IMG/VR virus record: IMGVR_UViG_3300028840_006907
Location: 160,001-224,000 of that record
Strand: one strand, 5' to 3'
Length of the DNA stretch: 64,000 nucleotides
Source of the DNA: a virus
The notes under the pieces were generated by a model that was not told where the DNA came from, made no database searches, and saw only the letters and a program-made list of their open reading frames with translations. Shown piece after piece: positions 2,453 through 52,997 of the stretch. The stretch's first letter is position 1. Each line of letters starts with the position of its first letter. Made by a program: the position numbers and the translations under genes.

Positions 2453-2857
2453 TTATCCTCCAATTTCACTAATTTTTTTGATATTTTGACTAACTGTTAA
2501 GACCATCGATACAATTGACGCCTGCAATTCGTTAGAATCAAGGTTTGCGATTTCCAAGACATCTTTAAAAATGATTTTACCTTTACTTGTGTCCCATCCG
2601 AACCCACCGTGAACTGCTTCATCAGCATTTAGCTTTAATAGCAACTCACCAAATTCTTGTGATACTCGTTCGGCTGGACAAATATCCATGAGGAAAATTA
2701 TTGTTGTTTCCTCAACGTCAATAATTACTTCGAGCCCGGTATCGGGTTCGGTTACCAAGAAGATATCATCGGTTTTTTGTTCCGTATCGAAATCTCCTAA
2801 TTCTGTCAACATTTCGAAAACTTTAATTCCGTTTTCAATTTCTTTTTGACTTGCCAT
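2453..2857 (-). CDS. hypothetical protein
   Basis: 134-aa acidic ORF immediately upstream of PspA-like gene. Confidence 0.3.
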   Translation of the reverse strand: MASQKEIENGIKVFEMLTELGDFDTEQKTDDIFLVTEPDTGLEVIIDVEETTIIFLMDICPAERVSQEFGELLLKLNADEAVHGGFGWDTSKGKIIFKDVLEIANLDSNELQASIVSMVLTVSQNIKKISEIGG

Positions 2858-2888
2858 GATTTTTTATTCCTTTTTTATTTGTTATTTG

Positions 2889-3455: not shown

Positions 3456-3456
3456 C

Positions 3457-4296: not shown

Positions 4297-4313
4297 AATA
4301 ACCTTCCATTTAA

Positions 4314-4338
4314 AAGTGATGGGGGCTAATGAGCCCCC
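4314..4338 (-). terminator. GC-rich hairpin (GGGGGCT/AGCCCCC) followed on the minus strand by a U-rich tract; possible intrinsic terminator or attenuator after the flotillin-like gene
   Basis: Perfect 7-bp GC-rich stem with 4-nt loop in an AT-rich background, just 3' of the stop at 4344. Confidence 0.4.
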
Positions 4339-4343
4339 TTTGC

Positions 4344-6209: not shown

Positions 6210-6244
6210 TTGTTAAATCCCTTTCAGTTGATTTTTTAATTTAA

Positions 6245-6949
6245 TTAAAGTTCATTTTCGATACATCTAAATGTACCGTCTTTCTCCTTTCGAATTATTA
6301 AGACCTCATCACCAGCTTTAAATTCAGCGTCATCTTCTTCGGGTTCCAGGTAAACAAGATGTTGCTGTCCGTGTTTATCTTTAAGCCGTGCTTCAGCTCT
6401 AAGACCTCTTTTTGTACTACCAACAGTAATAGTTGCAAGGGTTCCAATAAATTCATCAGATGAGACCGCAGTGCTCTCATCTTTGAATGCAATATGACTG
6501 CATAATTTTGATATATAACGTGATATCAAAATCGAAAGAACAAAAGAGGCTGGCACAATTATAAACCATGGAAAGTAATGACTAGTATATTTTTTTATAT
6601 AAAATTGACCTATTAGACCTATACCGGAGAATGAAGATAAAAATATGATGAAGTAAACGAGCATCGGTACTTTTCCTTTCACCCAAATAAATAGCTTGGA
6701 TAAAGCAGGAACACTTGCTCCTTCTCCTACATCAGCTTCTACATCTACATCTGCGTCAGCATCTATGTCAATTTCAATTTCAGGTACGTCTATATCTGGT
6801 ACATCTACGTCAGCATCAAAATCTGGAATTAATCCATCTAGGAAACCAGAGATCACTCCGGATGAGAGTACTTCTAATAAAAAAATTAATACTAACAATA
6901 CTAATGCTACTGAAAAGGCCGTATTTTCAGTAGAAAGAAAGAGTTCCAT
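6245..6949 (-). CDS. NfeD-like membrane protein (SPFH partner)
   Basis: Hydrophobic helices, acidic DV/DI repeat, C-terminal short beta-rich domain (GDEVLIIRKEKDGTFRCIE) as in NfeD OB-fold; directly upstream of the SPFH gene. Start set at internal Met with AAGGAAG SD. Confidence 0.5.
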   Translation of the reverse strand: MELFLSTENTAFSVALVLLVLIFLLEVLSSGVISGFLDGLIPDFDADVDVPDIDVPEIEIDIDADADVDVEADVGEGASVPALSKLFIWVKGKVPMLVYFIIFLSSFSGIGLIGQFYIKKYTSHYFPWFIIVPASFVLSILISRYISKLCSHIAFKDESTAVSSDEFIGTLATITVGSTKRGLRAEARLKDKHGQQHLVYLEPEEDDAEFKAGDEVLIIRKEKDGTFRCIENEL

Positions 6950-7076
6950 TTTACTTCCTTCTTTGTAATTTGTAAATCTTATGGTTTTGGTTAATAGTGT
7001 ATTGAGACTTTTATGGTTAAAGGATTGGTTATTGCTATATTGTCCTCCTTTCAATTATTTAATTGAATATATTTAT

Positions 7077-11711: not shown

Positions 11712-12353
11712 ATGAAAAATTTGGGCAAAACAATTGATCGATTAATCTCAATTGACCAGGGTCTTGAAAAATCTTTAAAACCCATAAAAAACAAATGGAA
11801 ACGATGGCCTAAAAGAACTATGAACTATTGGGCTGAACTTCTGGAAGTTTTAAATTCGGATGATTTGATGGAGCATCCTGATCGTGATAAAATGAGTCAA
11901 GTTCTTAATGATGCCAAAAAAAGGAAACGTCCTAATTATTCTTTTGAAGTAATATCAATGCATGATAGGATTGTAGGTCCTTTAACAGGTCTTTTAGCTG
12001 ATAAAATAAGACGTTTGGATCTCAGATCAATAAAAATAGGAAGAGACCGTGCTGAGGCTAATATGACGCATAATTTAAAGATGCAGATTGATGTGGCACG
12101 AAGAGAGCAACTTTTAGAAATTGAAACCAAAAAAATATGGGTTGCTTTAAGAGATGAATTTAAATTATGGACAAAGCCTGGTTATTACAATATCAAAGTT
12201 TCAACTGAAAATAATATCCTTTATATGGTGGAACAACTCCCACAACCTCAGTTGGTCGGACCAGGTGTAATAAAGATGAATCCGGATATGTTAAAAAAAT
12301 TTTTTGATTTTATGGGGATGGATCCTCCCCCCGAACTTTTTGGAGGTAAATAG
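11712..12353 (+). CDS. hypothetical protein
   Basis: 213-aa ORF, first gene of a three-gene plus-strand island. Confidence 0.3.
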   Translation: MKNLGKTIDRLISIDQGLEKSLKPIKNKWKRWPKRTMNYWAELLEVLNSDDLMEHPDRDKMSQVLNDAKKRKRPNYSFEVISMHDRIVGPLTGLLADKIRRLDLRSIKIGRDRAEANMTHNLKMQIDVARREQLLEIETKKIWVALRDEFKLWTKPGYYNIKVSTENNILYMVEQLPQPQLVGPGVIKMNPDMLKKFFDFMGMDPPPELFGGK

Positions 12354-12889
12354 TGATCAGAGCATTAAGAGTAGTTGAAGCATATTTAAAAGAAGCCTAT
12401 GATTTCAGCTCAGTCCAGGCTGAATTTCCTGAGAAGATAGCCCAGGAGCTTCGGGATTGGGGGTATAAACATATTCCTGAAGAAGCTCTTTCTGGTGACG
12501 GGTTTGAAGATGATAAACATGTGACTATTAAGTACGGAATCCATATTAATGATTTTACTGAAATAAGAGATCTGTTTAAAGATGAAAAACCGATAGAGAT
12601 GGTCCTTGGTAAAATGACCCTTTTTACTTCAAGTCCTGATTTTGATGTATTGAAAATTGATATTAAATCACCGGCTCTGCATCGATTAAACAAAGCTGTA
12701 TCAAAAAATTTTGAAGTCACAGATACACATCCAGAATACCTACCCCATTGCACAATAGCATATGTGAAGAAAGGTGCTGCAGATCCCTTTAATGGCGATA
12801 CTACATTTGAGGGTCGTAAGGTAATATCAGATTTAATTCTTTTTTCAGGAAAAGATAATCGTCATACGGAATTTAAATTGGTTAAATAA
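12353..12889 (+). CDS. 2H phosphoesterase (LigT/2'-5' RNA ligase / cyclic phosphodiesterase family)
   Basis: Two H-x-T-x motifs (DKHVTIKYG and LPHCTIAYV) at the spacing expected for the 2H fold. Confidence 0.55.
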   Translation: MIRALRVVEAYLKEAYDFSSVQAEFPEKIAQELRDWGYKHIPEEALSGDGFEDDKHVTIKYGIHINDFTEIRDLFKDEKPIEMVLGKMTLFTSSPDFDVLKIDIKSPALHRLNKAVSKNFEVTDTHPEYLPHCTIAYVKKGAADPFNGDTTFEGRKVISDLILFSGKDNRHTEFKLVK

Positions 12890-13982: not shown

Positions 13983-14906
13983 TTAAATGCCTGTTTGTAG
14001 TCTATAACTGATTAAAACTCTTTTTTGTATTGTATTTCCATAAATTCTGTGATCGAAAGCATCTTTCCCTTTTGTCTTTACCCATAAAAAGCCGTCTTTA
14101 TATTTAACTAGTGCGAATTGGCCTTTTAATTTTTTTCCATTAAAATTGAGAATATACTTGGTATCTCCTTCGGAATAAATAAGATCGAAAGTACCTTTAT
14201 CCCAAATTTTAACTTTACCTGCACCATAACCATCTTTTATTTCACCTTCGAATTGGCCATAAGCTATGGGATGATCTTCAGTTTCAATCAGATATACTTT
14301 GTTCTTTCTGGTAGGAATTTCGCGCAGTTTATTAACGAAAGACCTGTATACTGTTCCTGGATCCTTTGATCCTTTACCTGTAGGTTCATTGGTTTGAGGT
14401 CTCTTTTTATCATAGTTTTTAAGGGATCTTTCTAGTGATTTTACGGGGAATTCAAGTCTAACATCCCAATGTTTTCCAGCTTTGTCAGCTTCATGATTAT
14501 GGATAACGAATTTACCTTTATAACCTTGTTTCATTTTTTCCAGGTCATATCCGGCTGTAATAGTTCTGACTATATGAGATTCACCATTTATGCTTCGATT
14601 TATGATTGATGCAATTTTTTTGGATAACTTTTTATATTCTTCTGCGAAGGCATCAAATTTTTGAATAGCTTTTTTGATCTCATATTCTTTTACACCAGAA
14701 AGTGCTATTACAATTTGAGAGTCTTTTCGGTTAATGGTAAAACCGTGTTTACTTGCTATTTTAAAAACTCTTTTAGAAGGTTCATTATTAAAAATAAAAG
14801 CCCAATGATTTTTATACCATCCTAAACTAGCGGGTTTTTCTGGTATTAGGGCTTCAGCAGCATTTATGAGAGGTCCCTCTAAATGTATATGAGCTATTTT
14901 ATCCAT
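13983..14906 (-). CDS. protein with LigD-type 3'-phosphoesterase (LigD_N/PE) domain
   Basis: C-terminal half matches the LigD PE signature: FVIHNHEADKAGKHWDVRLE ... EDHPIAYGQFEGEIKDGYGAGKVKIWDKG. Confidence 0.65.
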   Translation of the reverse strand: MDKIAHIHLEGPLINAAEALIPEKPASLGWYKNHWAFIFNNEPSKRVFKIASKHGFTINRKDSQIVIALSGVKEYEIKKAIQKFDAFAEEYKKLSKKIASIINRSINGESHIVRTITAGYDLEKMKQGYKGKFVIHNHEADKAGKHWDVRLEFPVKSLERSLKNYDKKRPQTNEPTGKGSKDPGTVYRSFVNKLREIPTRKNKVYLIETEDHPIAYGQFEGEIKDGYGAGKVKIWDKGTFDLIYSEGDTKYILNFNGKKLKGQFALVKYKDGFLWVKTKGKDAFDHRIYGNTIQKRVLISYRLQTGI

Positions 14907-15768
14907 AAGTTTCTGTTAATACCGGTTTCTTACCTTTAAGTTTTAACCATTCATATTTCTTTTTGTTGTTTTTTAAATGGTTTAAATATTCTTCTGTAAC
15001 AGTGATTTCTTTAAATTCCCCATCTATAAATTCATTTATTACTTCTCCTACTTTAGGAAGGGGCTCTTCTGAAAGTGGGGTTGAAGGGATTGTTTCTCCT
15101 TTTTGATGTTGTTGCTCTCGTTTTCTTAACCTTTTTATTTTACTTACTTCTGCTGGTGAAAGGGGTTCACCATAAAGGCTTTCTTTTTTAAGATAAGCTG
15201 ATAATACTCTGTGGGCAGCTTCTTTATTTTTTGTATCCTCCATATTAATTGACGCTCCTTCTCTATATTTATTTATAACTTTCATAGCTTTCTTTTTTCG
15301 TTGTCTCCACATATTGAGACATTGAGCCACTGCTTCATCATGGTCTTTTTTCTCAACTTTTAATAATTGGTGCATACAAGCAGACATCCATTCTTTTTCA
15401 TTTTTAAATTTATTTGGATTAGGCATATCAATAACCTTTTTTAAAGATGTTTTTATTTTGATATCTGTAAAAGCTCTTTTAAGAATATCTTCAGTTTCTT
15501 CAATTCCTTCGAGATAGGATTTAAATTCCTCCGGTCTTAGATAGACGAGAAGACGTAGAAATTCCCCGGCATGAACAACTTCTTCTTCTGCGATATCTCT
15601 CAATACATTCTCAACTTTACTATCTTTTATAGAATCAGCCAATTGGGTATATAATTGAACCGCTTCATATTCTGCTGCAATTAAAAATCTAATCGCTCTT
15701 ATAATCTCTTCTTTATCTAAATTTCGGTCATTTCTCAATCCCGAAAAAGGTGTCCCAAAGTCAGGCAT
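14899..15768 (-). CDS. ferritin-like (rubrerythrin/EncFtn-like) domain protein
   Basis: Helix pair with AAEYEAVQLY and EEEVVHAGEF (E...E / ExxH diiron-type motifs); remainder K-rich. Confidence 0.35.
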   Translation of the reverse strand: MPDFGTPFSGLRNDRNLDKEEIIRAIRFLIAAEYEAVQLYTQLADSIKDSKVENVLRDIAEEEVVHAGEFLRLLVYLRPEEFKSYLEGIEETEDILKRAFTDIKIKTSLKKVIDMPNPNKFKNEKEWMSACMHQLLKVEKKDHDEAVAQCLNMWRQRKKKAMKVINKYREGASINMEDTKNKEAAHRVLSAYLKKESLYGEPLSPAEVSKIKRLRKREQQHQKGETIPSTPLSEEPLPKVGEVINEFIDGEFKEITVTEEYLNHLKNNKKKYEWLKLKGKKPVLTETYG

Positions 15769-17013: not shown

Positions 17014-18534
17014 TTATGAATAGTTTTTTCTCCCTACAATGGTGAAGGAATTCTTTTCTTGATTATAATTTGAGTACATGATAATTAAATTATTCCCCAT
17101 ATCTTTTTTAACTTCATCAAAGAATTGTGGTACTCCACCCATCATCATATGAACGATAAAATATCCTCCAGGTCGTATAAGGCCCTTACAATTTTCATAA
17201 ACAGGTTTATTCTGTGGACTAAATCCATGTGGTCCTAGATAAAGTACAAATGGAAAACTCTCTCTTTTAAATTCGGTTCCAAGATCGTCTATATCTGGTT
17301 TAGCGAATTTATTGGTATCAACTGTAATAACATTATGATGTTTATAATAACCGGAAAAGAAACAAAGTCCTTTATCAGCAGAGAGCATATATTTGTCTAC
17401 TTCGGATAAGTCGGGAGTTATTAACATTTCTTTCATGTAATTAAAATGTTGCCCAGTGAATTTGATTTTTAAATGATCAATTGCCTGTAAAACGTCCTCA
17501 GGTCTCACCTGAGTGAAGCAAGGACTAGGGTGGCCTTTGACACAAGTTCTGAAATCATGCTTGTAGCAGGGGCTACAAACCACACTAGGATCCAATCCTA
17601 TAGCATTTTTAAAGTATCTCATTCTTACTTCACTTGGAAATGGCCCATAAAGTCCCACTAATGGTTTATCTAGTGCCCCAGCTACTTGTACCATGAATGT
17701 GTCAGGAGAGATCACCATATCGAATCTTGTGGCTAATATCATAACTTGTCTAACACTGTAGTTGGTGGCTAAATAGACATTATTATTGCCTCCTTTGAAA
17801 TAACTTCCTATTACGTTATGTTGTGGCATTCCTATTAGCACAATTTTAACTTTGTTCTCTCTTGCAAGTATATCAATGATAACTTTCATTTTTTCTTTAG
17901 GAAAATTACGTAATGGAGCAGAAGTTTCCATTTGGATTCCGATAACATATTCTTCGGATTTAATCCCTATAATTGCAAGTTCTTTTTCAAGCCAATCCAT
18001 TTCTTCTTTTACATAAAAGAGTTGTGGTTTTTTGTCCTCAGGAGGAAGATGGATGCTATCAATACTGAAATAACTAAAAAACATATCTACAGCGTGAGTT
18101 TTCTTTGATTGCTCACTAGAAGATTCTATGATACCTTGGAACATGAGATGGTAATCGACTTCTTCCAATAACTGAGCATCAAAAGGCATATCATAGAGTC
18201 CGTCTATTTCCGGAACGTTTTCAAGTGATTGCTTACATCCTGAAGCTACCCGTATGAAAGAAGTAGGATATTTTTTCTTAAGGTATCGGAGAACTGGACT
18301 AAGAAATAAGATATCACCAATACCACCAGTTCTCCAGCACATTAATTTTTTATTGGTTAAATCCTCACCTTTATATGGTCTGTATATGGTTTCAATAGGA
18401 TAAGACATTCCTATATTTTGAGGAAATAAATTACGGTATTGCCCTTCGATGTCTTCAGCCATAACATAACTATGATTGGCTTCAAGAGTTTTATCAGCAT
18501 GGGTAAATGTTTCAGATATTTCAACTTTTCTCAT
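17014..18534 (-). CDS. glycosyltransferase family 9 (heptosyltransferase-like) with C-terminal extension
   Basis: GGIGDILF motif near N-terminus and C-terminal GT9 block DMVISPDTFMVQVAGALDKPLVGLYGPF...CSPC; about 100 extra C-terminal residues (LIRPGGYFIV) of methyltransferase-like character. Confidence 0.65.
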   Translation of the reverse strand: MRKVEISETFTHADKTLEANHSYVMAEDIEGQYRNLFPQNIGMSYPIETIYRPYKGEDLTNKKLMCWRTGGIGDILFLSPVLRYLKKKYPTSFIRVASGCKQSLENVPEIDGLYDMPFDAQLLEEVDYHLMFQGIIESSSEQSKKTHAVDMFFSYFSIDSIHLPPEDKKPQLFYVKEEMDWLEKELAIIGIKSEEYVIGIQMETSAPLRNFPKEKMKVIIDILARENKVKIVLIGMPQHNVIGSYFKGGNNNVYLATNYSVRQVMILATRFDMVISPDTFMVQVAGALDKPLVGLYGPFPSEVRMRYFKNAIGLDPSVVCSPCYKHDFRTCVKGHPSPCFTQVRPEDVLQAIDHLKIKFTGQHFNYMKEMLITPDLSEVDKYMLSADKGLCFFSGYYKHHNVITVDTNKFAKPDIDDLGTEFKRESFPFVLYLGPHGFSPQNKPVYENCKGLIRPGGYFIVHMMMGGVPQFFDEVKKDMGNNLIIMYSNYNQEKNSFTIVGRKNYS

Positions 18535-18769: not shown

Positions 18770-19723
18770 TTAGAAGCTCAGTACTCTCACCTGGCATGGT
18801 GCCTCCTTTTCAAGTTGATATAATTTGTGATATAACAATTTTTCTTTTTCAGAAATTATTGAAGGTATTTTTATTTTAATAATTGCTTTAAAGTCCCCGA
18901 CTTCTTTTTTGTATGTTATTCCTTTGTTTTTGAATTCTATTTTCTGCCCGTATTGTGTCCCAGGAGGGATTTTTATGTTCACAGTTTTTTTGAAAACTTT
19001 AAGATTAAACGAATCTCCAAGTATTGCTTGAATAGGGCTAATGGTTATTTTTCCAATAATATCAAGGCCATTTACATAGTATCTGGGATCTTCTTTAATA
19101 ATTAGACTTACAATTAAATCGCCAGGAGATCCCCCAGGAATACAATTGCCAAGTTTAGGTATTCTTATGATTTCTAAAAGTGGGTTAAGGGTTATTGTAT
19201 GCTGAATTATCTCAGGCTGGAGAGCAGTTCCATTACATATCTTACATTGATCTCCTTCAGGAATTCTTCCCATACCTTTGCAATATGTACATTTCTTTTT
19301 AGATCCTAGTATCAGTGATAATCCCTGTAAGCCAGTGCCATTACAGTATACACATTTTTTTAATAGCCTCTCTGCTGAACCTGTGCCCGAGCAATCTTTG
19401 CATGGCCCTTTTCTTTTAATTACAATTAATTTATTTATACTTTGAATTAGGTCCATTCTGGTCACGTTTATAGAGACTTTTAAATTGCTTCCTTGTTTGA
19501 AACTTCTTTTCTTTACGAATTGGTTGTCATATTTTTTTCTTTTATTCTCATCTTTTAAAACTTCATAGGCATCTGTGGCTTCTCTGAATTTTTCTTCAGC
19601 AATTTTATCATCAGGGTTTTTGTCAGGATGATACTTTATAGCCAACTTTCGATAAGCGACTTTAATCTCTATATCTGTAGCATCTTCTGGTATATTTAAG
19701 ATCTTATAATAGTTCTTATTCAT
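18770..19723 (-). CDS. dnaJ: DnaJ/Hsp40-type co-chaperone
   Basis: J domain with HPD motif (KYHPDKNP) and four CxxCxGxG zinc-finger repeats. Confidence 0.85.
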   Translation of the reverse strand: MNKNYYKILNIPEDATDIEIKVAYRKLAIKYHPDKNPDDKIAEEKFREATDAYEVLKDENKRKKYDNQFVKKRSFKQGSNLKVSINVTRMDLIQSINKLIVIKRKGPCKDCSGTGSAERLLKKCVYCNGTGLQGLSLILGSKKKCTYCKGMGRIPEGDQCKICNGTALQPEIIQHTITLNPLLEIIRIPKLGNCIPGGSPGDLIVSLIIKEDPRYYVNGLDIIGKITISPIQAILGDSFNLKVFKKTVNIKIPPGTQYGQKIEFKNKGITYKKEVGDFKAIIKIKIPSIISEKEKLLYHKLYQLEKEAPCQVRVLSF

Positions 19724-38488: not shown

Positions 38489-38805
38489 TATTCTCCCTCG
38501 TCGTTATCGGTGTCATCATCATCTATATCAATTAAGATGTAACTGAATTGATCAAGTGTTTGTAAAGAGTGCCCAATTAATTTTGTTATATAATCTAAAA
38601 GTTTTTCCTTTAAAGGATCTTCCGATTTAAGAATGGTATAAGAATCTAGTGATTTACCAAATACATCGGATATAGATTTCAGTTTAAACTTCACAGCATC
38701 TAAAACCTGAAGTAAAGAATCGTTGTTCTGTTGGTCACTATTAAGTTTTTCCATATACTCCTTAAATTTATCATCCCCATATTCAGGGTCATTATTATTA
38801 CTCAT
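38488..38805 (-). CDS. small acidic protein
   Basis: 105 aa, ends in DDDDTDNDEGE. Confidence 0.3.
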   Translation of the reverse strand: MSNNNDPEYGDDKFKEYMEKLNSDQQNNDSLLQVLDAVKFKLKSISDVFGKSLDSYTILKSEDPLKEKLLDYITKLIGHSLQTLDQFSYILIDIDDDDTDNDEGE

Positions 38806-39086
38806 TTTTGTCTATTCCTTTAAAATTGATAGAAGCTATCCTATATAATGATATGGAACTAACAAGGGTTTTCGATAAGTAAAAAATAAAAAAAGTTTTT
38901 AAGTCTAATGGTTTGAGTAAGTTACAAGAGGTAATTTTAGGTTTAAAAAAACCATGTTTTTTGATAAGAATATATAATATAGAGTATAAATAATCCTGTT
39001 TTTATGATTTACTAAAAAAGTAATTAATATAAATAGCTATATGAATATGTATATATGAATATAGTTATTTATTTTTTCCTGAATAA

Positions 39087-39149
39087 GGAAAAGTAAAATA
39101 AAAAAGAACAGAAAAATAGTAGTAGAAGAAGAGAGGAATGAGGATTAAA
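39087..39149. repeat. 63-bp direct repeat, copy 1
   Basis: Identical to 40188..40250. Confidence 0.9.
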
Positions 39150-39395
39150 AAAGATATAGATGATATAAAAAGAACCAATATAATGAATTTAATAGTAAAA
39201 ATAAAAATTTAAGTCACCAATATAATGAATAAACTTATGAACAAAGTAAAAATATAACCTATAAAATCTTCAAAAAAAGTTAAATCATAACCTTATTTAT
39301 TCGAACCAGTTATAACAAAAAAAATAAAACCTTAAAAATTTTACTTATCACTTTACCTTTCTAACTTTGTATAAATAGTAGGAGGTAAATTTGAA

Positions 39396-39770
39396 ATGAA
39401 CACAATTTTTATCACAGGTTTGGATAAAATCTCTATTAAAAGATTCATCCAATTTATTCTAAAATACTTAAATGATTACCAAGTTGGTACACTTCATTAC
39501 TTAATGAGTGAAGAGAGCATAAACTATTACATCGAAGATTTTTCAAATAAATTTCAAAAAAGGATCTTCTCTTACTTCTTAAGGAAATCAGGAGATTCTA
39601 TACCCAATCTTCCTACTTCAATAACTGATAGTGCTGATCTTATCATATGGTTTGATTTATACAGTACTAAACCAATAGTTAAACAGAGTAAGACAGAACC
39701 GCATATTCTTAAAGGGGCTCTTATGGATTGGGCAAGACACATAGAGAAATTAGAGAAAGGGGGATTGTAG
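39396..39770 (+). CDS. hypothetical protein
   Basis: 124-aa ORF with AGGAGG SD; lies between the 63-bp repeats. Confidence 0.35.
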   Translation: MNTIFITGLDKISIKRFIQFILKYLNDYQVGTLHYLMSEESINYYIEDFSNKFQKRIFSYFLRKSGDSIPNLPTSITDSADLIIWFDLYSTKPIVKQSKTEPHILKGALMDWARHIEKLEKGGL

Positions 39771-40160
39771 AAAGCCAGTTTGAGGAGGATATTAGGGCTC
39801 AACCCTGTTTGAGGACCACCGGGGCACACGAGGCCGTTGTAACGATGTAAGTCGGTAGTGCCGTGTCATTTAGGAGTTCGATCCAGGGGGATAGATCGTG
39901 CCATGACTCCTGTCAGTATACCGTCATAGGTAAAACCGAGTTACTCAAGATATATTATACCGGTCTGAAGGGTTCATCAAACATGAGAAGTTTACATGGG
40001 TACAAGCCGTTTCTAAGAGTACCTCAAAATTGAATTTTAGCTGTTTTAGGAAACAAAGCCTTACTATGCATGTAGTAAGCGAAATGTCGCAGGCTCGTGC
40101 CTCGCTAGTGACCCAGCGGGGATGGTGAAGACAGAAAGGTGCATTAAAATTGAGTAATAG
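39771..40160. ncRNA. candidate structured RNA of unknown class (GC-rich, hairpin-rich non-coding segment)
   Basis: Local GC well above flanks, several perfect short hairpins (e.g. cttacta-tgcatg-tagtaag), no convincing ORF. Confidence 0.3.
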
Positions 40161-40187
40161 ATGTATCAATAAATAAAAAAATCAATA

Positions 40188-40250
40188 GGAAAAGTAAAAT
40201 AAAAAAGAACAGAAAAATAGTAGTAGAAGAAGAGAGGAATGAGGATTAAA
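40188..40250. repeat. 63-bp direct repeat, copy 2
   Basis: Identical to 39087..39149, spacing 1101 bp. Confidence 0.9.
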
Positions 40251-40376
40251 TAGTGAATTAAATCAATGAGTTACAGTGAGTGCTACTGTGTAATTTAAAG
40301 CGGATTTAAATTTAAAATTAGTACTAAAAAATACAGTATAGTCTAAAAATAAAGGACTATTTATTAGGAATAAATT

Positions 40377-40559
40377 ATGTGTAATGGTTTATCTATTAAG
40401 GAAGATTTACCTAAAGTTGATATCCATGTTGAGTGTGACTGTGGAGAAGAATTAGACATCGATTTACATGGATGGAGTCTGTCTGTGTACGGTGGACTAG
40501 TATTTAAATGCCCTTCCTGTGAGTCAGAAATAAAGACCTATATGGTAGAGAGTGTGTGA
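40377..40559 (+). CDS. small zinc-ribbon protein
   Basis: CDCG...CPSC. Confidence 0.3.
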   Translation: MCNGLSIKEDLPKVDIHVECDCGEELDIDLHGWSLSVYGGLVFKCPSCESEIKTYMVESV

Positions 40560-44002: not shown

Positions 44003-47000
44003 ATGGAGATCGAGATGCTATCACCTTTTGGGAAAATTGTCTGGGAAGATCGATACGCGCTGAAGGATGAATATGGGAAATTAATTGAAAAAAATATTTT
44101 AGAAACATTTCGTAGAGTTGCTACAGCTATTGCTTCTAAGGAAAAAGACTCTAAGTTTTGGGGTGACAAATTTTATAAGATTATGGCAGACCAATCTTTC
44201 TGTCCAGCCGGTAGAGTCCTAGCCCATTCAGGTACACATTATTCTCAACTTCTCAATTGTTTTGTTCTCCCATTCCAGGATGACAGTCTGGAAGAGATTA
44301 TGAACACTGGTAAAAACATGGCTATTGTTCAAAAATATGGTGGGGGCTGTATTGGAGGTGAGAGTAATATTCTTACTAATAAAGGTGTTGTACCATTAAA
44401 AGAAATTGTTGAAGGAAATGATAAAGATCTTAAAGTACTATCTTTTAATTCTGATAATAATGAGATGGAATACTGTGATATTTTAGAAAGACATACAAAT
44501 AATTTATCTGGGGATCGTGTATTCGAAATTGAGTTCGATAATACAAAAGGCGGTGTTGCATCAAGAATAAGAGCTAGCGATTGGCATCCCTTTTTTGTTT
44601 TTGATGGAGTAAAGATAATCCAAGTACGTGCTGATGAGTTAAAACCTGGGATGGCTGTAATAGGCTCAACTGATTTAGGGGTAAATTTAAAGTATGATTC
44701 TATGGGTTGGTTATTAGGTTATATTGCTGGTGACGGTTCGATTGATACTAATAATGGGGAAGATGTACGTGTTAGGGTAGTAGATGACAGTGAAGAGTGT
44801 GTTAAACGTGCAGCAGGAATATTTAATACATCTTATAAACCTTCTAGTGATAAACGTTATAAAGTAAAAATGTGGGCTTGTGAGGTTTATGGAGATGAAG
44901 CTGGGATGGTAAAGGATGAGTTTGGGGGGTATCAAACTAGTGGTACAAAACATGTCCCGAATTCTATCTGGGAAAGTTCTCCTGAAAGAAGACTTTCTTT
45001 TTTAGTTGGGCATATTGATGCAGATGGCTGGTTTAATAAAGAGAAAAAAAGATTTGAAGTTTTTACTGTTAGTAATGAATTGGCAAAAGAATTAATAGCC
45101 TTAGCTGGTGGTCTTGGTATTCGGGCTTCACTACGTTTTAGAAAATCACGTAAAGAAAATGAGCAAGATGGTTGGGAAGTTAGGTATAGTAGCTCTCAAT
45201 TTTCGATTGATTTAATTGTTAATATTAGTGCAAAACATAACCCACTCAATGCTGGATGGGTTATGGGTACTATAAATTTATCTCATGAATGGAAAGATCA
45301 TTTAAAAAGCGTAGGTATTAATGTTTATACAAATAAAGCATGGAGAAAGTCAATTGAAATTGATGGTGTAAAAAGATCATTAGTTTATTGGTTACAGCAT
45401 GGTAAAGCTTCAAGAGAAACTGCTGCTTCTATTCTTAGAGTGTGTGGTGAAGAAAAGATAGCAAGTGCTGTTTTATCTAGCCAAATAGTACTCTCTTCAA
45501 AGGCTACAGGAATTTCAGAAACATTATATGATCTCACTATTGCAAAAAATCAAACATATATGGCATCAGACCCAACTACAGGGGCTTATGTTGTTGTGCA
45601 TAATACAGGATTTAATTTCAGTAGGCTCAGACCATCAGGTTCATATATAAAAGGTGTCAATGGTCGTAGTAGTGGACCCATCGGATTTATTAGCATGATG
45701 TCAACTATCTCAGAAATAATTGAACAAGGCGGGACCCGCAGGGGCGCGTCAATAGGGCTTCTTGAGGCATGGCACCCTGATTTATGGGAGTTTGTTTCTT
45801 ATAAAACTGAACATAATTGGGAATGTCTTCGAGAATTTATTGATGTGAATGATTACGATAAATGGGAATCATTTAAATATGAAAATTTATATAAATGGCA
45901 AATGTTCAATGTCTCTGTAGGAATTACTGATGATTTCTTAGAATCTGTTAAAAACAATAAGGAATGGGTATTTAATTGGAAAGGGGAAGAGTGGGAACTT
46001 TATACCGTTATTTTTAAGAAATATATAAGTGAAGGTAATTACAAAGAATTAACATTTGAAGTTACAGCTAACAATGATCCTACTGCTATATGGAAAGTAA
46101 GAAAGAAAATACCTTATCCTACTGGTAGTGATATATTTGAAGTTACATCAAAAAGAAAAGTAAAAGCTTCCGAGATCTGGGATAGACTGTGTTATAATGC
46201 CTGGGCTGATGGATGTCCGGGCATTATCAATTTAAGTACTGCTCGTAGGATGCATAATTTAGAATATGCCTTCCCTATAGAAGCTACTAATCCTTGTTTT
46301 ACTGGAGATTGTAAATTGGATACTATCAATGGTCCTATGACTTTTGAAAGTCTTGAGGATAAAGAAATTGATCTTAAAACTCCATATGGTTCTATTGAAA
46401 AAGGTAGAATTTGGAAAACAGGGGTAAAATCTACTATCAGATTAAAATTTAATGATGGTAGTTCAATAACGGTTACTCCCGATCAACTATTTTTGTGTCA
46501 TAAAGGAAAAGAGATACGGGCTAAGGATTGTTTAAATAAATGTTTAAATACTTCGGATATACCGTTAAGTGTAGTTTCAATAGAGGATAATGGTGAACAA
46601 GAGGTCTATGATTTTTCAATCCCATGTAATTGGGGTATAGTTAATGGAATAGTGGCTCATAATTGTGGGGAGCAACCTTTAGGGGGATTTAGTTCTTGCA
46701 ATTTGTCAAGCATACTCCTTCCTAATTTTGTTATAGAGGATACCAAATCAGTTGATTGGGATAAACTTAAAGAGGTTGTTCATACTGCTGTCAGATTTTC
46801 GGATAATGTTGTAGATAATTGTGAATTTCCGATTCCGGAAATTAAAGATAAAGCATATCAGGAAAGACGTGTCGGACTAGGTACTATGGGAGTTCATGAC
46901 ATGTTAATCAAAATGGGACTAGATTATGATAGTGATGTGGGTCGTGATGCTGTGGAAGAGGTATTAAGATTTATTCGGGATGAAGCTTATAAAGCATCAA

Positions 47001-48085
47001 TTAAAATTGCGGAAGAGAAGGGGTCTTTTCCAGCCTTTAAAAAGAAAGAAATTTTAAAGAGTGGGTTTATAAAAACACTTCCACCAGAGATCGTAAAATT
47101 GATTGGGAAAAATGGTATTAGAAATAGTGCCCTTTTATCCCAGGCACCCACAGGATCGATCTCAGCGTTAAATAACGTTTCATCTGGGTGTGAACCATGG
47201 TATTCATTATCCTTCCAAAGAAACACTCGTTTGGGTTCCTATGAAGATGGTTGTCCAACTTATATTGAATGGAAGAAAAATAACCCCGAAGCTCCCATAC
47301 CATCCTATTTTAAAACAGCTCCAGAAATAAGCCCTACAGATCACGTAAAAATGCTTATTCTTTTTAGTAAATACATTGATTCAGCGGTGAGTAAGACAGT
47401 TAATCTCCCAAATCATACAACAGTAGATACAGTTAAAGAGACATTTATTTATGCTATGGAAAATGGTGTAAAAGGTCTGACTGTTTTTCGGGATGGTTCT
47501 AAAGAAGGTGTTTTAGTAAATAAACAAAACAAGAAAAAAATTGAAGAAATAATTCCATATACAGATAAAGAAGATTGTTATGAAAATGTAATGTCTCCTA
47601 AAAAGCGGGGAGATAAAACAACTGGTTCAACATATCGTATTCATATGCAAAGTCATAATTTATATGTTACAGTTAATCGAAATAGAGATGGTGATTTAGT
47701 AGAGCTTTTTACTACAGTTGGAGAGAGTAAAAAACCTAATGCACATCATACTAGTGGTGTTGAAGATTCCTGGGCAGAGGGTCTTGGTAAAATAATTAGT
47801 CTAGCTCTGCGTGCAGGAGTGAAACCTAGTTCAATAATTCGGAATTTAAAAAATATTCCATCAGATAAACCAGTATTTGTTACTATCGGTGATAATGAAA
47901 ATTCTGAGCATATACCTTCTCCACCTCATGCTATTGCTAGGGTAATAGAAGATGAGATGAGTAATGGTGAAGAAGAAATTAATATTCAAGGAGGTTATTG
48001 CTCAGAATGTGGCTCAACAAATACTAAAAAGAAGAGTCCCACTTGTTACGAGTGTTTTGACTGTGGCTACGTAGCTTGTGGTTAA
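44003..48085 (+). CDS. nrdJ: class II (adenosylcobalamin-type) ribonucleotide reductase interrupted by two inteins
   Basis: Extein motifs QKYGGG|TGFNFSRLRPSG, GGTRRGA, TNP|CGEQPLGG; C-terminal Cys cluster; 1360 aa before splicing, about 818 aa after. Confidence 0.85.
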   Translation: MEIEMLSPFGKIVWEDRYALKDEYGKLIEKNILETFRRVATAIASKEKDSKFWGDKFYKIMADQSFCPAGRVLAHSGTHYSQLLNCFVLPFQDDSLEEIMNTGKNMAIVQKYGGGCIGGESNILTNKGVVPLKEIVEGNDKDLKVLSFNSDNNEMEYCDILERHTNNLSGDRVFEIEFDNTKGGVASRIRASDWHPFFVFDGVKIIQVRADELKPGMAVIGSTDLGVNLKYDSMGWLLGYIAGDGSIDTNNGEDVRVRVVDDSEECVKRAAGIFNTSYKPSSDKRYKVKMWACEVYGDEAGMVKDEFGGYQTSGTKHVPNSIWESSPERRLSFLVGHIDADGWFNKEKKRFEVFTVSNELAKELIALAGGLGIRASLRFRKSRKENEQDGWEVRYSSSQFSIDLIVNISAKHNPLNAGWVMGTINLSHEWKDHLKSVGINVYTNKAWRKSIEIDGVKRSLVYWLQHGKASRETAASILRVCGEEKIASAVLSSQIVLSSKATGISETLYDLTIAKNQTYMASDPTTGAYVVVHNTGFNFSRLRPSGSYIKGVNGRSSGPIGFISMMSTISEIIEQGGTRRGASIGLLEAWHPDLWEFVSYKTEHNWECLREFIDVNDYDKWESFKYENLYKWQMFNVSVGITDDFLESVKNNKEWVFNWKGEEWELYTVIFKKYISEGNYKELTFEVTANNDPTAIWKVRKKIPYPTGSDIFEVTSKRKVKASEIWDRLCYNAWADGCPGIINLSTARRMHNLEYAFPIEATNPCFTGDCKLDTINGPMTFESLEDKEIDLKTPYGSIEKGRIWKTGVKSTIRLKFNDGSSITVTPDQLFLCHKGKEIRAKDCLNKCLNTSDIPLSVVSIEDNGEQEVYDFSIPCNWGIVNGIVAHNCGEQPLGGFSSCNLSSILLPNFVIEDTKSVDWDKLKEVVHTAVRFSDNVVDNCEFPIPEIKDKAYQERRVGLGTMGVHDMLIKMGLDYDSDVGRDAVEEVLRFIRDEAYKASIKIAEEKGSFPAFKKKEILKSGFIKTLPPEIVKLIGKNGIRNSALLSQAPTGSISALNNVSSGCEPWYSLSFQRNTRLGSYEDGCPTYIEWKKNNPEAPIPSYFKTAPEISPTDHVKMLILFSKYIDSAVSKTVNLPNHTTVDTVKETFIYAMENGVKGLTVFRDGSKEGVLVNKQNKKKIEEIIPYTDKEDCYENVMSPKKRGDKTTGSTYRIHMQSHNLYVTVNRNRDGDLVELFTTVGESKKPNAHHTSGVEDSWAEGLGKIISLALRAGVKPSSIIRNLKNIPSDKPVFVTIGDNENSEHIPSPPHAIARVIEDEMSNGEEEINIQGGYCSECGSTNTKKKSPTCYECFDCGYVACG
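44348..45604 (+). mobile_element. intein 1 (419 aa) with LAGLIDADG homing-endonuclease domain
   Basis: Starts with Cys after QKYGGG, ends VVHN before Thr; two LAGLIDADG motifs (LGYIAGDGSID, LVGHIDADGWF). Confidence 0.8.
46295..46663 (+). mobile_element. intein 2 (123-aa mini-intein, no endonuclease domain)
   Basis: Inserted between TNP and CGEQ of the active-site motif; starts CFTGD, ends VAHN before Cys. Confidence 0.75.
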
Positions 48086-48928: not shown

Positions 48929-49414
48929 ATGTCTATTAATCCTTTGTTTTTAAAATTTCTAAATCGTGAAGCTCCTGTACTTGAAATGTTGAGTTCATTT
49001 TCACGGTCTAAAGATCCTTATACTTCTGAGGCTGCTAATGAATTAATGGAAAATCCTCCTGACTTGGAGGAGTTCCGGAAAGAATTTATCGATGCTGTAA
49101 GAGATATTATTAAAGAAGGACCAGGTAAGGAATTTTCTGCTTTTGTTGACCATTATATGGCACCTTCTTTAGAAGAGGATGTAAAAACTGTTAAGGGTCA
49201 ACGGGGTGAAAACATACATCGTACAGCTAGAGTAAAAGACAAAAATGAACCTTGGGTGCAAGCTTTAATTTGTTATAATCTCTGTCTTTATATCAGAGCT
49301 TTTGGTTTAGAAGCTTTAAAAACATGTAAGGTTTGCGGTAGATTTTTTGCTCATAAGGGAAAATGGGCCGTATACTGCAGTGACGTATGTAAATCAAATA
49401 AAAATAAGAAATAG
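48929..49414 (+). CDS. hypothetical protein with C-terminal zinc ribbon
   Basis: CKVCGRFF...CSDVC. Confidence 0.3.
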   Translation: MSINPLFLKFLNREAPVLEMLSSFSRSKDPYTSEAANELMENPPDLEEFRKEFIDAVRDIIKEGPGKEFSAFVDHYMAPSLEEDVKTVKGQRGENIHRTARVKDKNEPWVQALICYNLCLYIRAFGLEALKTCKVCGRFFAHKGKWAVYCSDVCKSNKNKK

Positions 49415-49421
49415 AGATAAT

Positions 49422-50177
49422 ATGATAAAGATTGGTGCTGTTTATTGCGTCTATGATGCCTCTACATTTTTATATGAGTCTGTTCATAGAATTTATCCTT
49501 TAATGGATAAAATTGTTTTCATTATAAATACAAAACCATGGTATGGTGAACCTGTACAAGATGAACCTTTTAATACCTATAAAAAGATTCTGTCTATAGA
49601 AGATCCTCAGAATAAATCTCTCATTTTAACAGGTACTTGGAATAATGAAGCTTCTCAAAGAAATGATGGCTTAAAATTATTAAAAGGTCTTGATATTGAT
49701 TGGTGTCTTATAGTAGATGATGATGAACTTTATAATCGCTCTGAATTGCTCTCTATTATAGGTATGCTTCAGAATGCTGAGCATGCTGCTTATTTAATTT
49801 ACCATCAAATTTATTGGAAAAACAGAAATACTATTATTGAAGGTAAATTTGGTTCTTTTCCTACTTTTACTAGAACTAATGGAACTGTGCATTTTAATGA
49901 GGATAGAATGATACTTGTTAGTGAACCTCATACTTGGTTTACAATATCTTCAAATAATATAATGTGTCATCATATGTCTTATATACGTTCAGATTCTGAA
50001 ATGTTGAGAAAAATCAAAAATTTTTCTCATGCTGATGGAGTACCTGAAAATTGGTATAAGGAAAAATGGTTGAATTGGAATAAGGATACAGTTAATTTAC
50101 ATCCTTCACCTAATAATGCTTTTAAGAGAGCAATCTCAGTTTCAGAATCAAAATATAATCTTGATCCAATTTTTTAG
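49422..50177 (+). CDS. GT-A fold glycosyltransferase-like protein, tentative
   Basis: DxD-like LIVDDDE after a Rossmann-like N-terminus. Confidence 0.3.
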   Translation: MIKIGAVYCVYDASTFLYESVHRIYPLMDKIVFIINTKPWYGEPVQDEPFNTYKKILSIEDPQNKSLILTGTWNNEASQRNDGLKLLKGLDIDWCLIVDDDELYNRSELLSIIGMLQNAEHAAYLIYHQIYWKNRNTIIEGKFGSFPTFTRTNGTVHFNEDRMILVSEPHTWFTISSNNIMCHHMSYIRSDSEMLRKIKNFSHADGVPENWYKEKWLNWNKDTVNLHPSPNNAFKRAISVSESKYNLDPIF

Positions 50178-50212
50178 TTATCGAAAACTCTCCTTCGTGT
50201 CGTATAATAAGT

Positions 50213-50812
50213 ATGGGAAAAACAGAAAGATTAAAAAAACTTGAAGAAATTGCAGAGAAGTGTTATAACTGTGAATTAGGTAAAACACGTAATAGGTTAG
50301 TCTTTGGTGAAGGTAGTGCTAACTCAACTTTTATGATAATAGGTGAAGGTCCTGGGGAAACAGAGGATAAAGAAGGTCGTCCTTTTGTGGGGAGATCAGG
50401 TCAATTATTACGAAAGATGTTAACAGCCATTGATCTTAATCCTGAAAAAGACGTTTTTATTGCTAACATAGTAAAATGTCGCCCTCCGAAAAATCGGGAT
50501 CCTAAAAAGAATGAAATTACAACATGTATAAAATTTTTGAGAAAACAGATAGAGATTATTGAACCGAAATTAATAATTCTTTTAGGTAAGTCTGCAGTAA
50601 AAGGCATTTGCCCTGATTTAGCGAAAGAGAGTGTTGAAAGATTACGTATTATATCAAAAAATCTCGGTATGTTAATTTACAATGATATTCCAGTTGTTGT
50701 TACTTATCATCCTAGTGCTTTACTAAGAACTCAATGGAGAAGAGTAGGTGCCAAGGAAGATTTTGAATTTCTTCAGAATGTTTATAAGGAATTCAAGAAT
50801 GATGAGCGATAA
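50213..50812 (+). CDS. uracil-DNA glycosylase, family 4
   Basis: GEGPGETEDKEGRPFVGRSGQLL and Cys-containing N-terminus (CYNCELG), HPSALL near C-terminus. Confidence 0.85.
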   Translation: MGKTERLKKLEEIAEKCYNCELGKTRNRLVFGEGSANSTFMIIGEGPGETEDKEGRPFVGRSGQLLRKMLTAIDLNPEKDVFIANIVKCRPPKNRDPKKNEITTCIKFLRKQIEIIEPKLIILLGKSAVKGICPDLAKESVERLRIISKNLGMLIYNDIPVVVTYHPSALLRTQWRRVGAKEDFEFLQNVYKEFKNDER

Positions 50813-51413
50813 AAATAGGAGTTTTTGGGAAAAAATGCATAAAGATAATAGTAGATTGTGGTTAACCGATTCTGATCCGAATTATGTCTATGAGTTACAC
50901 AGTTTGACAAAAGATTTAATTAGATCTAAATATAATATTCTGGAAGTTGGTGTCGGCACAGGTAGATCTATTATTCGGTTAAGTGACATGCATTCTGTCT
51001 ATGCCGTAGATATAGCGGAAGAGGCATTAAAGAAGGTTAGGTTATTTGCTACTACTATTCAGGTTTATGATGAAGAGAATTGGCCTAAAGATAAAATTGA
51101 TATAGCTCTTTGTCATTTAGTATTTCAACACTGTAATGATAATAATTTCAGGTATTTAATTAGGCAAATATTAGAGAGTTTAACTCCTAAAGGTTATTTT
51201 ACTTTTCAAAGTGCTGATGCAGAGAAAAAGAATTTAAATAAAAATTATAAAAAATATGTAAAAGAGAACCACATGTATTTTAGGTCAAAAGATGATGTGA
51301 CAAGAACCGTTGAAAAGATGGGGGGAAGAGTTTTATCTATTTCTGATGATATTGTTCATATCAATGAATGTTATATAGTTTGGAATATTTTCAGAGTAAA
51401 AAGGTCCTTTTAA
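50799..51413 (+). CDS. SAM-dependent methyltransferase
   Basis: Motif I ILEVGVGTGRS, acidic residue after beta-2 (AVDIAEE). Confidence 0.55.
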   Translation: MMSDKNRSFWEKMHKDNSRLWLTDSDPNYVYELHSLTKDLIRSKYNILEVGVGTGRSIIRLSDMHSVYAVDIAEEALKKVRLFATTIQVYDEENWPKDKIDIALCHLVFQHCNDNNFRYLIRQILESLTPKGYFTFQSADAEKKNLNKNYKKYVKENHMYFRSKDDVTRTVEKMGGRVLSISDDIVHINECYIVWNIFRVKRSF

Positions 51414-51417
51414 ATAA

Positions 51418-52098
51418 ATGGTAATTCTTGAATCCGGTGTTGGTTATAGAATACAAGAGAATTATGTATTTGATAACGAGGTGATTCAATTTGGAGCTGC
51501 TAGAAGTGGCACTACCTTAATGTGGAATATACTAGCACGATTATTTAGAAAAGTTTGGAAATCTCATCAATATATACCAAAATCGATGGTTGAGAAAGAT
51601 ACGAAAGTATTTATAACAATAAGACATCCAAGAGATATGGTCCTGTCTTTAATGAGGGTGGAAGAAGATATTGATGATTTATCTTCAATTACTAAAGAAA
51701 AATTAGAAGCTTATATAACATGGATTGAGAGTTATCAGAAATTTTATGAAACTTTTTATAATGAATACGATCATTTTGATTTCAGGTTTGAGAATTATAA
51801 TATTAATACAGTATTTAATGTAATTGAAAATAATTATGGGGAGATACCTGAAAATCTTAAAGAAAAAATTAAAAAAGATGTAAGTAAAGAACAGGTATTA
51901 AAGGATGTATCTCATAAAGGAAAAAGGCAATTAATAAAAAATGGTTATAGTGCTTATTTTCTTAATAGGAATAGTAAACATATATCAGATAAAGAACCAG
52001 ATGAATATTTTAATATGTTATCTTTAAATTTACAGAAGAAATTAAATAAAAGTCTTGGCGAGTTTAAAATTTTTCTAGGATATAGTGCAGGAATTTAA
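51418..52098 (+). CDS. sulfotransferase family protein
   Basis: 5'-PSB-like loop GAARSGTTLMWN and 3'-PB-like ITIRHPRDMVLS. Confidence 0.5.
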   Translation: MVILESGVGYRIQENYVFDNEVIQFGAARSGTTLMWNILARLFRKVWKSHQYIPKSMVEKDTKVFITIRHPRDMVLSLMRVEEDIDDLSSITKEKLEAYITWIESYQKFYETFYNEYDHFDFRFENYNINTVFNVIENNYGEIPENLKEKIKKDVSKEQVLKDVSHKGKRQLIKNGYSAYFLNRNSKHISDKEPDEYFNMLSLNLQKKLNKSLGEFKIFLGYSAGI

Positions 52099-52141
52099 AA
52101 GAAAGATAGTTCTTTTATAAAACTAATAATCTTTCAATATT

Positions 52142-52663
52142 TTGGCTATATGTATGGATGTATTGCTAGTAATGAATCCTCAAAATAGCTTTCTTTCTGA
52201 GACCGGAAGCGTTTATATGGGAGAAAGAGCTGAGGTTTTAAAAATCCGGTTAATTGATTATTTTTCAAGATTTACTAAAAAGATAATATTTTTCCGAGAG
52301 AAACACGCTCTAGAAGATGAATTTTTTGTAACAGATAAAACTCATTCAATTACAAATACAGAAGATTTTTTAATTTGTGATTCATTGAAGAAGTTTGCTA
52401 ATACTATAATAGACAAAACAAGGTACAATGCCTTTTTTCGGACTCCGCTTGAAGAGACATTAATGCGATTAAAGGCAAAACATATAGGTATTGTAGGAAT
52501 TGAAACACATTCTTCAGTTCTGTTTACTGCTGAAGAATTACGAAATAGATTATATGAAGTAACAGTAATAGAGCCATGTGTGATGTCAAGAGATGATTAT
52601 TTACATGGTTATGCTATTACATTAATGTGTCATCTTTTAGGAGTGAGGATAGCCAATGGATAA
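52142..52663 (+). CDS. isochorismatase-like hydrolase family protein
   Basis: VLLVMNPQNSF and KTRYNAFF...IGIVGIETHSSV pattern; the usual catalytic Cys position appears to be Ser. Confidence 0.45.
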   Translation: MAICMDVLLVMNPQNSFLSETGSVYMGERAEVLKIRLIDYFSRFTKKIIFFREKHALEDEFFVTDKTHSITNTEDFLICDSLKKFANTIIDKTRYNAFFRTPLEETLMRLKAKHIGIVGIETHSSVLFTAEELRNRLYEVTVIEPCVMSRDDYLHGYAITLMCHLLGVRIANG

Positions 52664-52997
52664 AACAACTTATTTTAAGCTTGAGTGTCCAAGATGTCAT
52701 TCCCCAGCTCGTGCCAAAGTGAACAAGAAAGTGTATAAATTTTTAATCTATCGATGCCCTTTTTGTGATAGTAATGTTGTTTATTATGAAGACACTGTAG
52801 ATATTTTGTCTGATGAATTTATGAAAACATTGATGAAAGATAAACATCTTACTTTTTGTGGCGATGCTGTATTTCCAAAAGTCTCTCCATCAAACGAAAG
52901 TATTATAAAGGAAGAAATCACACTTGATCGAATTAGAGATTTTGTGATTACTCTTAATACAGAAAAGGATTTTCAGACATTCCTTAAAAAAATTTAA
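52656..52997 (+). CDS. zinc-ribbon protein
   Basis: CPRCH...CPFCD. Confidence 0.3.
   Translation: MDKTTYFKLECPRCHSPARAKVNKKVYKFLIYRCPFCDSNVVYYEDTVDILSDEFMKTLMKDKHLTFCGDAVFPKVSPSNESIIKEEITLDRIRDFVITLNTEKDFQTFLKKI

Follow-up and report, generated by a model that had tools for sequence, protein, structure and literature searches.

Sulfotransferases have been noted in giant viruses, where the glycosylation cluster of Moumouvirus australiensis combines glycosyltransferases and an adenosine 5'-phosphosulfate (APS) kinase with a sulfotransferase whose predicted substrates are the sugars of the fibrils, and where the glycosylation clusters of Tupanvirus include sugar methyltransferases (PMC10117803). 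They have also been noted in marine phages, with a function that "remains unclear" (PMC10580990), and a statement in PMC10829341 that cites Iyer et al. 2013 speaks of glycosyltransferase- and sulfotransferase-based phage nucleotide modification systems as predicted. Here we analyze a run of five genes in viral DNA, comprising a glycosyltransferase-like gene (A), a uracil-DNA glycosylase gene (UDG; B), an S-adenosylmethionine (SAM)-dependent methyltransferase gene (C), a candidate sulfotransferase gene of the 3'-phosphoadenosine 5'-phosphosulfate (PAPS) type (D) and an isochorismatase-fold gene (E). The run occupies positions 49422-52663 of a stretch of 64,000 nucleotides, hereafter the window, which corresponds to positions 160,001 to 224,000 of the IMG/VR record IMGVR_UViG_3300028840_006907. 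An earlier note on this DNA took the run for a coherent modification-enzyme island. Comparison with relatives shows that the region is a plasticity slot within the replication module of a huge phage, with contents that vary from one relative to another.

Loci were retrieved around the homologues of A and E, and all window genes were mapped onto them, yielding ~20 distinct related loci. The slot is the stretch between a gene of 161 aa and E, and it holds at least nine different contents in these loci. The 161-aa gene (48929..49414, plus strand), which has a Cys-rich C-terminal tail and only weak, Zn-finger-like matches in Pfam and PHROG, directly precedes the slot at 54-77% identity in every close relative, and the variable portion begins after it. 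The slot is empty in L079 and L080, where the border gene (54% and 39% identity, respectively) is followed by E without A. Elsewhere, E is preceded by A alone (L004/L019, L011 and L020/L022), by A and a methyltransferase 66% identical to C (L012), by A and UDG (L028 and L029), by A, a HAD-like gene and UDG (L007/L027), by A, the HAD-like gene and a 42-aa C-terminal UDG remnant (L023/L024), or by A and the HAD-like gene (L030, and L021 with an extra 80-aa ORF [open reading frame]). L017 carries A, UDG and a truncated methyltransferase ORF of 66 aa. The fullest version, in which A is accompanied by UDG, methyltransferase and sulfotransferase, occurs in the window only.

The distribution of the individual genes reveals how the slot has changed. 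UDG is present in L007, L017, L028 and L029, reduced to the 42-aa remnant in L023, and absent from L004, L011, L012, L020, L021 and L030; the remnant is direct evidence of gene decay inside the slot. An alternative occupant in the relatives is the small HAD-like protein of 111-128 aa with a DxDGT motif (L007, 6770-7126; L023, 8752-9087; L030, 8758-9105; L021, 8221-8607). The slot UDG (64-65% identity) and methyltransferase (66%) have diverged about as much as the flanking genes, which fits old residents that were lost repeatedly. D has no counterpart in any of the slot relatives (~20 loci), and its single close homologue (46% identity) lies on another phage-like contig (L002) without methyltransferase, UDG or isochorismatase neighbors and without an adjacent glycosyltransferase, the nearest being a GT1 gene and a weak GT2_3 match 4.5-9 kb away. 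Since D is missing in the relatives and its nearest homologue sits in an unrelated context, it is therefore a lineage-specific acquisition.

These results do not support a pathway island. Judged by co-inheritance together with adjacency, the run fails as an island, as D is found in the window only and A is missing from L079 and L080; A, UDG, methyltransferase and sulfotransferase vary independently of one another among the relatives, E forms part of another block with the primase, and UDG is a plain repair gene. The term mosaic accessory slot is thus more appropriate. The domain calls of the earlier note were right for all five contiguous ORFs (GT-A glycosyltransferase, SAM methyltransferase, sulfotransferase, isochorismatase and UDG). 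Its placement of the genes directly downstream of ribonucleotide reductase (RNR) and thioredoxin has to be corrected in part: they do lie downstream, at a distance of ~1 kb from A, with three small ORFs intervening.

The five ORFs were verified on the plus strand and are close-packed, with spacings of 35 bp between A and B, -14 bp (an overlap) between B and C, 4 bp between C and D, and 55 bp between D and E. Exact protein sequences of the run were found on metagenomic contigs of 388,651 and 469,617 bp (JGI 3300017963 and others), which shows that the source is a huge phage (contigs of 389-470 kb) carrying the run within its replication module. The backbone order is DNA polymerase III (pol III) delta'/delta, an intein-containing RNR, thioredoxin, genes of 115, 65 and 161 aa, the slot, E, a 113-aa Zn-ribbon gene, a 136-aa gene and, further on, a DnaG-like primase. 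The promoter and terminator scan was indistinguishable from shuffled sequences, and no terminator-like site was found inside the run. Neither per-gene GC content nor codon usage indicated a foreign origin of the inserted genes; D has the lowest GC content of the genes (26.7%) and an ordinary codon usage. No match was obtained against 50,697 GenBank phage records, either by blastn with the region or by tblastn with A, C and D, and phmmer searches of the PDB with the same three proteins returned nothing useful.

E (169 aa; 52154..52663, plus strand) forms the right border of the slot and is the first gene of a block that continues with F, the 136-aa gene and the primase; it therefore belongs outside the variable set. 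It matches PF00857 at 75.8 bits (cut-off 27), and the family profile aligns over the full-length fold with cysteine hydrolases and nicotinamidases in the PDB (6kua, 3o94; E 7e-15). More than 155 homologues (P0098-P0217) were recovered at 55-91% identity on contigs of up to 512 kb; tblastn against the GenBank phage records gave two remote Staphylococcus-phage matches only. As in solved hydrolases of this type, the conserved Lys (113 of 121 family sequences) and the cis-peptide region are retained. Unlike in those enzymes, N8 of E aligns with the catalytic Asp and S121 with the nucleophilic Cys: of the 121 sequences, 94 have N and 17 have C at the Asp site, where D is missing from the tabulated residues, and 117 have S at the Cys site. 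Further differences are a new G-x-E-T-H-T-S motif, in which E117-T-H119 is near-invariant, and the synteny with the primase in >150 huge-phage lineages. Judging from this pattern of conservation, E appears to be a constrained, rewired member of the isochorismatase fold, tied to the primase block, rather than a decayed gene, with an active site possibly built on a Ser/His/Glu arrangement. F (113 aa; 52656..52997, plus strand), a Zn-ribbon gene that shares 8 nt with the end of E, stop codon included, always follows E in the relatives and has weak Lar-like restriction-alleviation matches (phrog_6422, E 1.5e-4; TIGR03655, E 0.008, below its cut-off). The E family, with its rewired active site and a conservation equal to that of the adjoining replisome genes across >150 huge-phage lineages, is the stronger lead from this locus.

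Two of the slot genes are readily classified. B (199 aa; 50213..50812, plus strand) exceeds the curated cut-off of the family-4 UDG model TIGR00758 (179 bits; cut-off 125.3), matches PF03167 at E 3e-36, and contains the four Fe-S cysteines (C17, C20, C89 and C105) together with the GEGPG and HPS motifs of that family, from which it differs in nothing notable. It is predicted to be an ordinary family-4 UDG repair gene, optional in this phage clade. C (204 aa; 50799..51413, plus strand; the ORF is open from GTG 50748) is a class-I SAM-dependent methyltransferase with matches to Methyltransf_25, 23, 31 and 11 (E 1e-9 to 1e-11) and also to Methyltransf_12; its best named relatives are BioC-like or other small-molecule methyltransferases, all of them weak. 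No match to the DNA-methyltransferase families N6_Mtase, N6_N4_Mtase or DNA_methylase was found in Pfam/NCBIfam-type scans, and motif IV, (D/N/S)PP(Y/F/W), as well as PCQ and ENV, are absent from C, which has no PP dipeptide in its sequence. C is thus not a methyltransferase of the DNA type.

A (251 aa; 49422..50177, plus strand) is an optional but frequent occupant of the slot, with more than 50 homologues at 42-77% identity. Its match to the Pfam GT2 family PF00535 is below threshold (16.2 bits, E = 0.01; cut-off 23.3), and weak matches to the same family occur in 20 of the 37 members of the A family (best 8e-5). The AlphaFold model built on the 37-member alignment (predicted local distance difference test score [pLDDT] 90) has a GT-A fold, and D99-D100-D101-E102, corresponding to the DxD motif for metal and nucleotide-sugar binding, is invariant in all 37 sequences. 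A is accordingly modeled as a GT-A-fold protein with a DxD motif. Viral GT17/Fringe-like models resemble that of A (TM-score ~0.7), and the nearest solved structures are peptide and teichoic-acid glycosyltransferases. The GT-A (GT2-like) enzymes SunS and ThuS (peptide S-glycosyltransferases), TarP (a prophage wall-teichoic-acid GlcNAc transferase) and SpsA serve as comparators, at 9-16% identity; A differs from them in a C-terminal half with conserved features of its own (CHH, SHA and several Trp that do not vary) and has no tetratricopeptide-repeat (TPR) or oligomerization domains. The neighborhoods of distant A relatives (≤44% identity) show no conserved partner gene. Distant members of the family (P0044-P0052; L013/L015, on contigs of 356 and 155 kb) are longer (420-470 aa) and carry an unassigned C-terminal extension, and those in L013/L015 are two paralogues ~1.8 kb apart, away from replication-module contexts. 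A second glycosyltransferase is encoded in the window, a 506-aa protein (17014-18534, minus strand) whose GT9 heptosyltransferase-like domain matches PF01075 (E 1e-12), so that the glycan-related capacity of the phage exceeds the slot.

D (226 aa; 51418..52098, plus strand) falls below the Pfam thresholds when taken alone (PF13469, 20.9 bits, cut-off 27; PF00685, 19.3 bits, cut-off 22), and a single-sequence AlphaFold model was unusable (pLDDT 34). Its identity consequently rests on sequence profiles from a 38-sequence family alignment. In that family, 30 of the 38 members match PF00685 (best 4e-14), and the profile finds retinol dehydratase (1fmj), SULT1C3 (2reo) and SULT1A1 in the PDB at E 1e-13 to 1e-10 with the motifs aligned. 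The 5'-phosphosulfate-binding (5'-PSB) loop is R29-S-G-T-T33, with R29, G31 and T33 invariant; K48 and H50 of the catalytic-His motif K48-x-H50 are kept in ≥90% of the sequences; R69...S77 of the 3'-phosphate-binding (3'-PB) motif is invariant; and E125 (YE motif) and H188 are conserved. The R...S motif aligns with RDPRDvavS, and K-x-H with KTH, of solved sulfotransferases. The elements RSGTT, K-x-H, R...S and YE are common to D and the PAPS-dependent sulfotransferases (PF00685/PF13469; SULT1C3, retinol dehydratase), and D differs from them in that its PSB loop is followed by the catalytic His without the substrate-binding insertion of ~60 residues. These motifs and profile matches point to a sulfotransferase fold, and D is therefore predicted to be a compact, PAPS-type sulfuryl transferase; the homology to an unrelated P-loop family that would have spoken against such a call was not encountered, as the profiles favor sulfotransferases.

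The D family is small, with 46 representative clusters among 1.84 billion in an exhaustive representative search, and many of its members come from TARA viral-fraction samples (<0.22 µm) on contigs of ~100 kb. D has no PHROG family. The claim that sulfotransferases are rare in phage-like genomes holds for this family, given the absence of any match in the 50,697 records and in PHROG, and is too broad for sulfotransferases at large, which are on record for marine phages and giant viruses. The family is made up of compact, expressible sulfotransferases of ~210-230 aa, mostly from viral-fraction metagenomes, for which the role in phages is described as unclear (PMC10580990).

The genomic contexts of distant D relatives bear most directly on function. 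Three of the five relatives with a readable context adjoin glycosyltransferases, and some also methyltransferases and sugar-nucleotide enzymes. P0053 (full-length, 32% identity) lies in a sugar cluster with an NTP-transferase, three epimerase/dehydratase genes, Methyltransf_21, GT2, Methyltransf_23, a split transketolase and another GT2; P0060 is a D-type domain fused to a GT2 domain, with a GDP-mannose-dehydratase-like gene beside it; and P0054 has weak GT25-like, Methyltransf_23-like and DUF7796 genes as neighbors. Two candidate relationships were tried and rejected: A and C were not orthologues of the GT2 and methyltransferase genes beside D relatives (motif-level similarity only in BLASTP), and the A family was not related to the DUF7796 neighbor of P0054 (negative in hhalign).

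Because D relatives occur in sugar clusters, tailoring of a glycan is the better supported function, and the explanation that we favor, by a modest measure, is a slot that combines DNA repair by UDG with glycan or small-molecule tailoring by A, C and D, with E standing apart. Under this explanation, UDG would remove uracil from the replicating phage DNA. A would move a sugar from a nucleotide-sugar to an acceptor other than DNA, which may be a protein of the phage or the host, a glycan of the envelope or a small molecule. C and D are probably co-transcribed with A, given that no terminator-like site lies within the run, and would tailor the product of A or a related one, with SAM and host-made PAPS as cofactors; such a trio would parallel the combinations of glycosyltransferase, methyltransferase and sulfotransferase around D relatives and in glycosylation clusters of giant viruses. 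The small-molecule-type matches of C may be counted for this explanation. E would work apart from the transferase chemistry, together with the downstream conserved genes and through a non-canonical active site. The modification of host glycans or a small molecule had been given as the alternative in the earlier note; it is the better supported of its two proposals, by an argument drawn from gene neighborhoods.

Several points weigh against such tailoring. The donors and acceptors of A, C and D are predicted. C and D occur independently of each other in the relatives, so that they need not share a substrate. Two of the five D relatives (L002 and L078) have no adjacent glycosyltransferase, and several of the neighbor annotations near D relatives are sub-threshold. 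The C-terminal G-x-P-G-x-W-K motif present in most D relatives reads KEPDEYF in D and KDSYFYL in P0002, with the upstream H188 kept. An ORF scan of the 64-kb window found no PAPS-synthesis or sugar-nucleotide genes, and the window covers 64 kb of a genome of 389-470 kb. In addition, early and replication genes surround the run, a setting that it shares with the T4 DNA glucosyltransferases.

The alternative that survives best holds that the slot collects independent accessory genes, with the glycosyltransferase, C and D acting on different targets, for example through sulfation of a host small molecule or of protein tyrosines and methylation of a metabolite. That UDG, the methyltransferase, the HAD-like gene, A and the sulfotransferase are each present or absent independently among the relatives is what such a collection would produce, and so are the decay remnants within the slot, the occurrence of C without D in L012, and a nearest D homologue without glycosyltransferase or methyltransferase neighbors. 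Furthermore, the PSB loop of D (ARSGTTLM) has an Arg where cytosolic sulfotransferases have a Lys, as is the case in tyrosylprotein sulfotransferases; TPST1 is a weak match in the PDB (E 0.08). Against unrelated passengers, a glycosyltransferase (with a methyltransferase in two cases) recurs beside D-family sulfotransferases on three other unrelated contigs, once as a fusion, and the run is close-packed on one strand without a terminator-like site between its genes. We regard this alternative as possible, and as clearly less probable than tailoring by A, C and D.

A role in counter-defense, in which host immune signals or NAD metabolites would be modified or destroyed by a nicotinamidase-like E while the transferases cap nucleotides, appears very unlikely. 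The nearest solved relatives of E are indeed nicotinamidases and cysteine hydrolases, an Acb1-like 2H phosphoesterase is encoded elsewhere in the window, the Zn-ribbon gene after E has its Lar-like matches, and C partially matches the methyltransferase domain of mad2 in PADLOC. However, E lacks the Asp and Cys needed by nicotinamidase chemistry, the mad2 match spans the generic methyltransferase core only, A, D and E have no PADLOC or anti-defense family matches, and the genes are not co-inherited. The 2H phosphoesterase itself (12353-12889, plus strand; Acb1 PF23474, E 1e-4; 2_5_RNA_ligase2, E 2e-7) is a possible cyclic-nucleotide-degrading counter-defense gene.

About as improbable is the hypermodification of DNA or nucleotides raised in the earlier note. 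In this scheme, A would glycosylate a modified base or dNMP, C and D would methylate or sulfate the sugar or base to give restriction-resistant DNA, and E and UDG would help with precursors or repair. It draws on the position of the run in the replication and nucleotide-metabolism module, ~1 kb past RNR and thioredoxin, on the wide retention of A in huge phages, and on the prediction of such systems in the statement from PMC10829341. Since the location is common to every gene passing through a swap-prone slot, proximity to RNR is no evidence of nucleotide chemistry and lends hypermodification no support. The known phage transferases among early and nucleotide-metabolism genes, namely the T4 alpha- and beta-glucosyltransferases and the thymidine-hypermodification clusters, resemble the slot in their setting. 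The T4 enzymes have a GT-B fold and need a 5-hydroxymethylcytosine pathway, and thymidine hypermodification requires a dUMP hydroxymethylase together with a P-loop DNA kinase and a pyrophosphorylase. No such partner was found among the ~60 ORFs of the 64-kb window in the Pfam scan, which yielded no ThyA-like hydroxymethylase, DpdA/TGT, 5-hydroxymethyldeoxyuridine (5-hmdU) kinase/DNA kinase or aGPT-Pplase. A, with its GT-A fold, matches no DNA-glycosyltransferase family: none of the 37 A-family members has a Pfam match to the T4-type families PF09198 and PF11440, and no T4-type structure appears among the listed fold matches of A. Moreover, C has no DNA-methyltransferase motif or family match, D relatives are placed in sugar clusters, and A, UDG, C and D are not co-inherited. 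Two palindromes of 6 bp do not occur at all in the window, CAGCTG (11.4 expected) and GAGCTC (7.1 expected), which suggests DNA exposed to restriction enzymes and is weak evidence from 64 kb. DNA sulfation is not known in biology, and the specific form in which A places a sugar on DNA or a nucleotide precursor that is then O-methylated and O-sulfated in this lineage is the least probable of all; if real, it would be the first sulfated DNA modification. AGGCCT and CCTAGG are also absent from the 64-kb window, suggesting restriction-site avoidance.

The remainder of the window encodes a replisome and repair set of bacterial style, which includes pol III delta', delta and tau-like proteins, the DnaG-like primase, a 5'-3' exonuclease and LigA, as well as RecD2, RecA, SbcCD-like and Cas4-like proteins, a sigma-70 region-4 protein and many orphan ORFs. 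No tRNA genes were found in it. The GC skew changes sign at ~38500-40500, where gene orientation also diverges, from the minus strand on the left to the plus strand on the right, and the replication origin of the phage genome is probably located there. The RNR large subunit (1360 aa; 44003-48085) contains two inteins with homing-endonuclease domains, and its intein load varies among relatives (1116, 1240, 1273 and >2078 aa), the longest version having an HNH domain as well. An unusual feature for phage DNA is a minus-strand cluster of membrane-stress and scaffold genes at 800-7054, which encodes a K+ channel with an RCK domain (800-1726), PspA/IM30 (1801-2469), flotillin (4344-6209) and a YqiJ/NfeD-like protein (6245-7054). 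Also on the minus strand (18770-19723 and 13983-15768), the phage encodes a DnaJ complete with its J, Zn-finger and C-terminal domains, a protein with a LigD 3'-phosphoesterase domain, and one resembling rubrerythrin.

It is in relation to the giant viruses that the favored tailoring by A, C and D can best be placed. The Moumouvirus australiensis cluster (ma457-ma468) and the slot have in common a viral genome in which a predicted PAPS-type sulfotransferase lies near glycosyltransferases. The giant-virus clusters are themselves known by predicted function, and here neither an APS kinase nor an ATP sulfurylase, nor a nearby sugar-nucleotide pathway, accompanies the sulfotransferase. Unlike the dedicated cluster of Moumouvirus, the phage locus has a bacterial host, a slot within a replication module and a shorter sulfotransferase family (~210-230 aa). 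Sulfation of a glycan on the virion or the host envelope, a less radical possibility than sulfated DNA, would be the first such reaction encoded by a phage. If A, C and D do act together, the slot would represent a bacteriophage counterpart of the predicted glycan-tailoring clusters of giant viruses.

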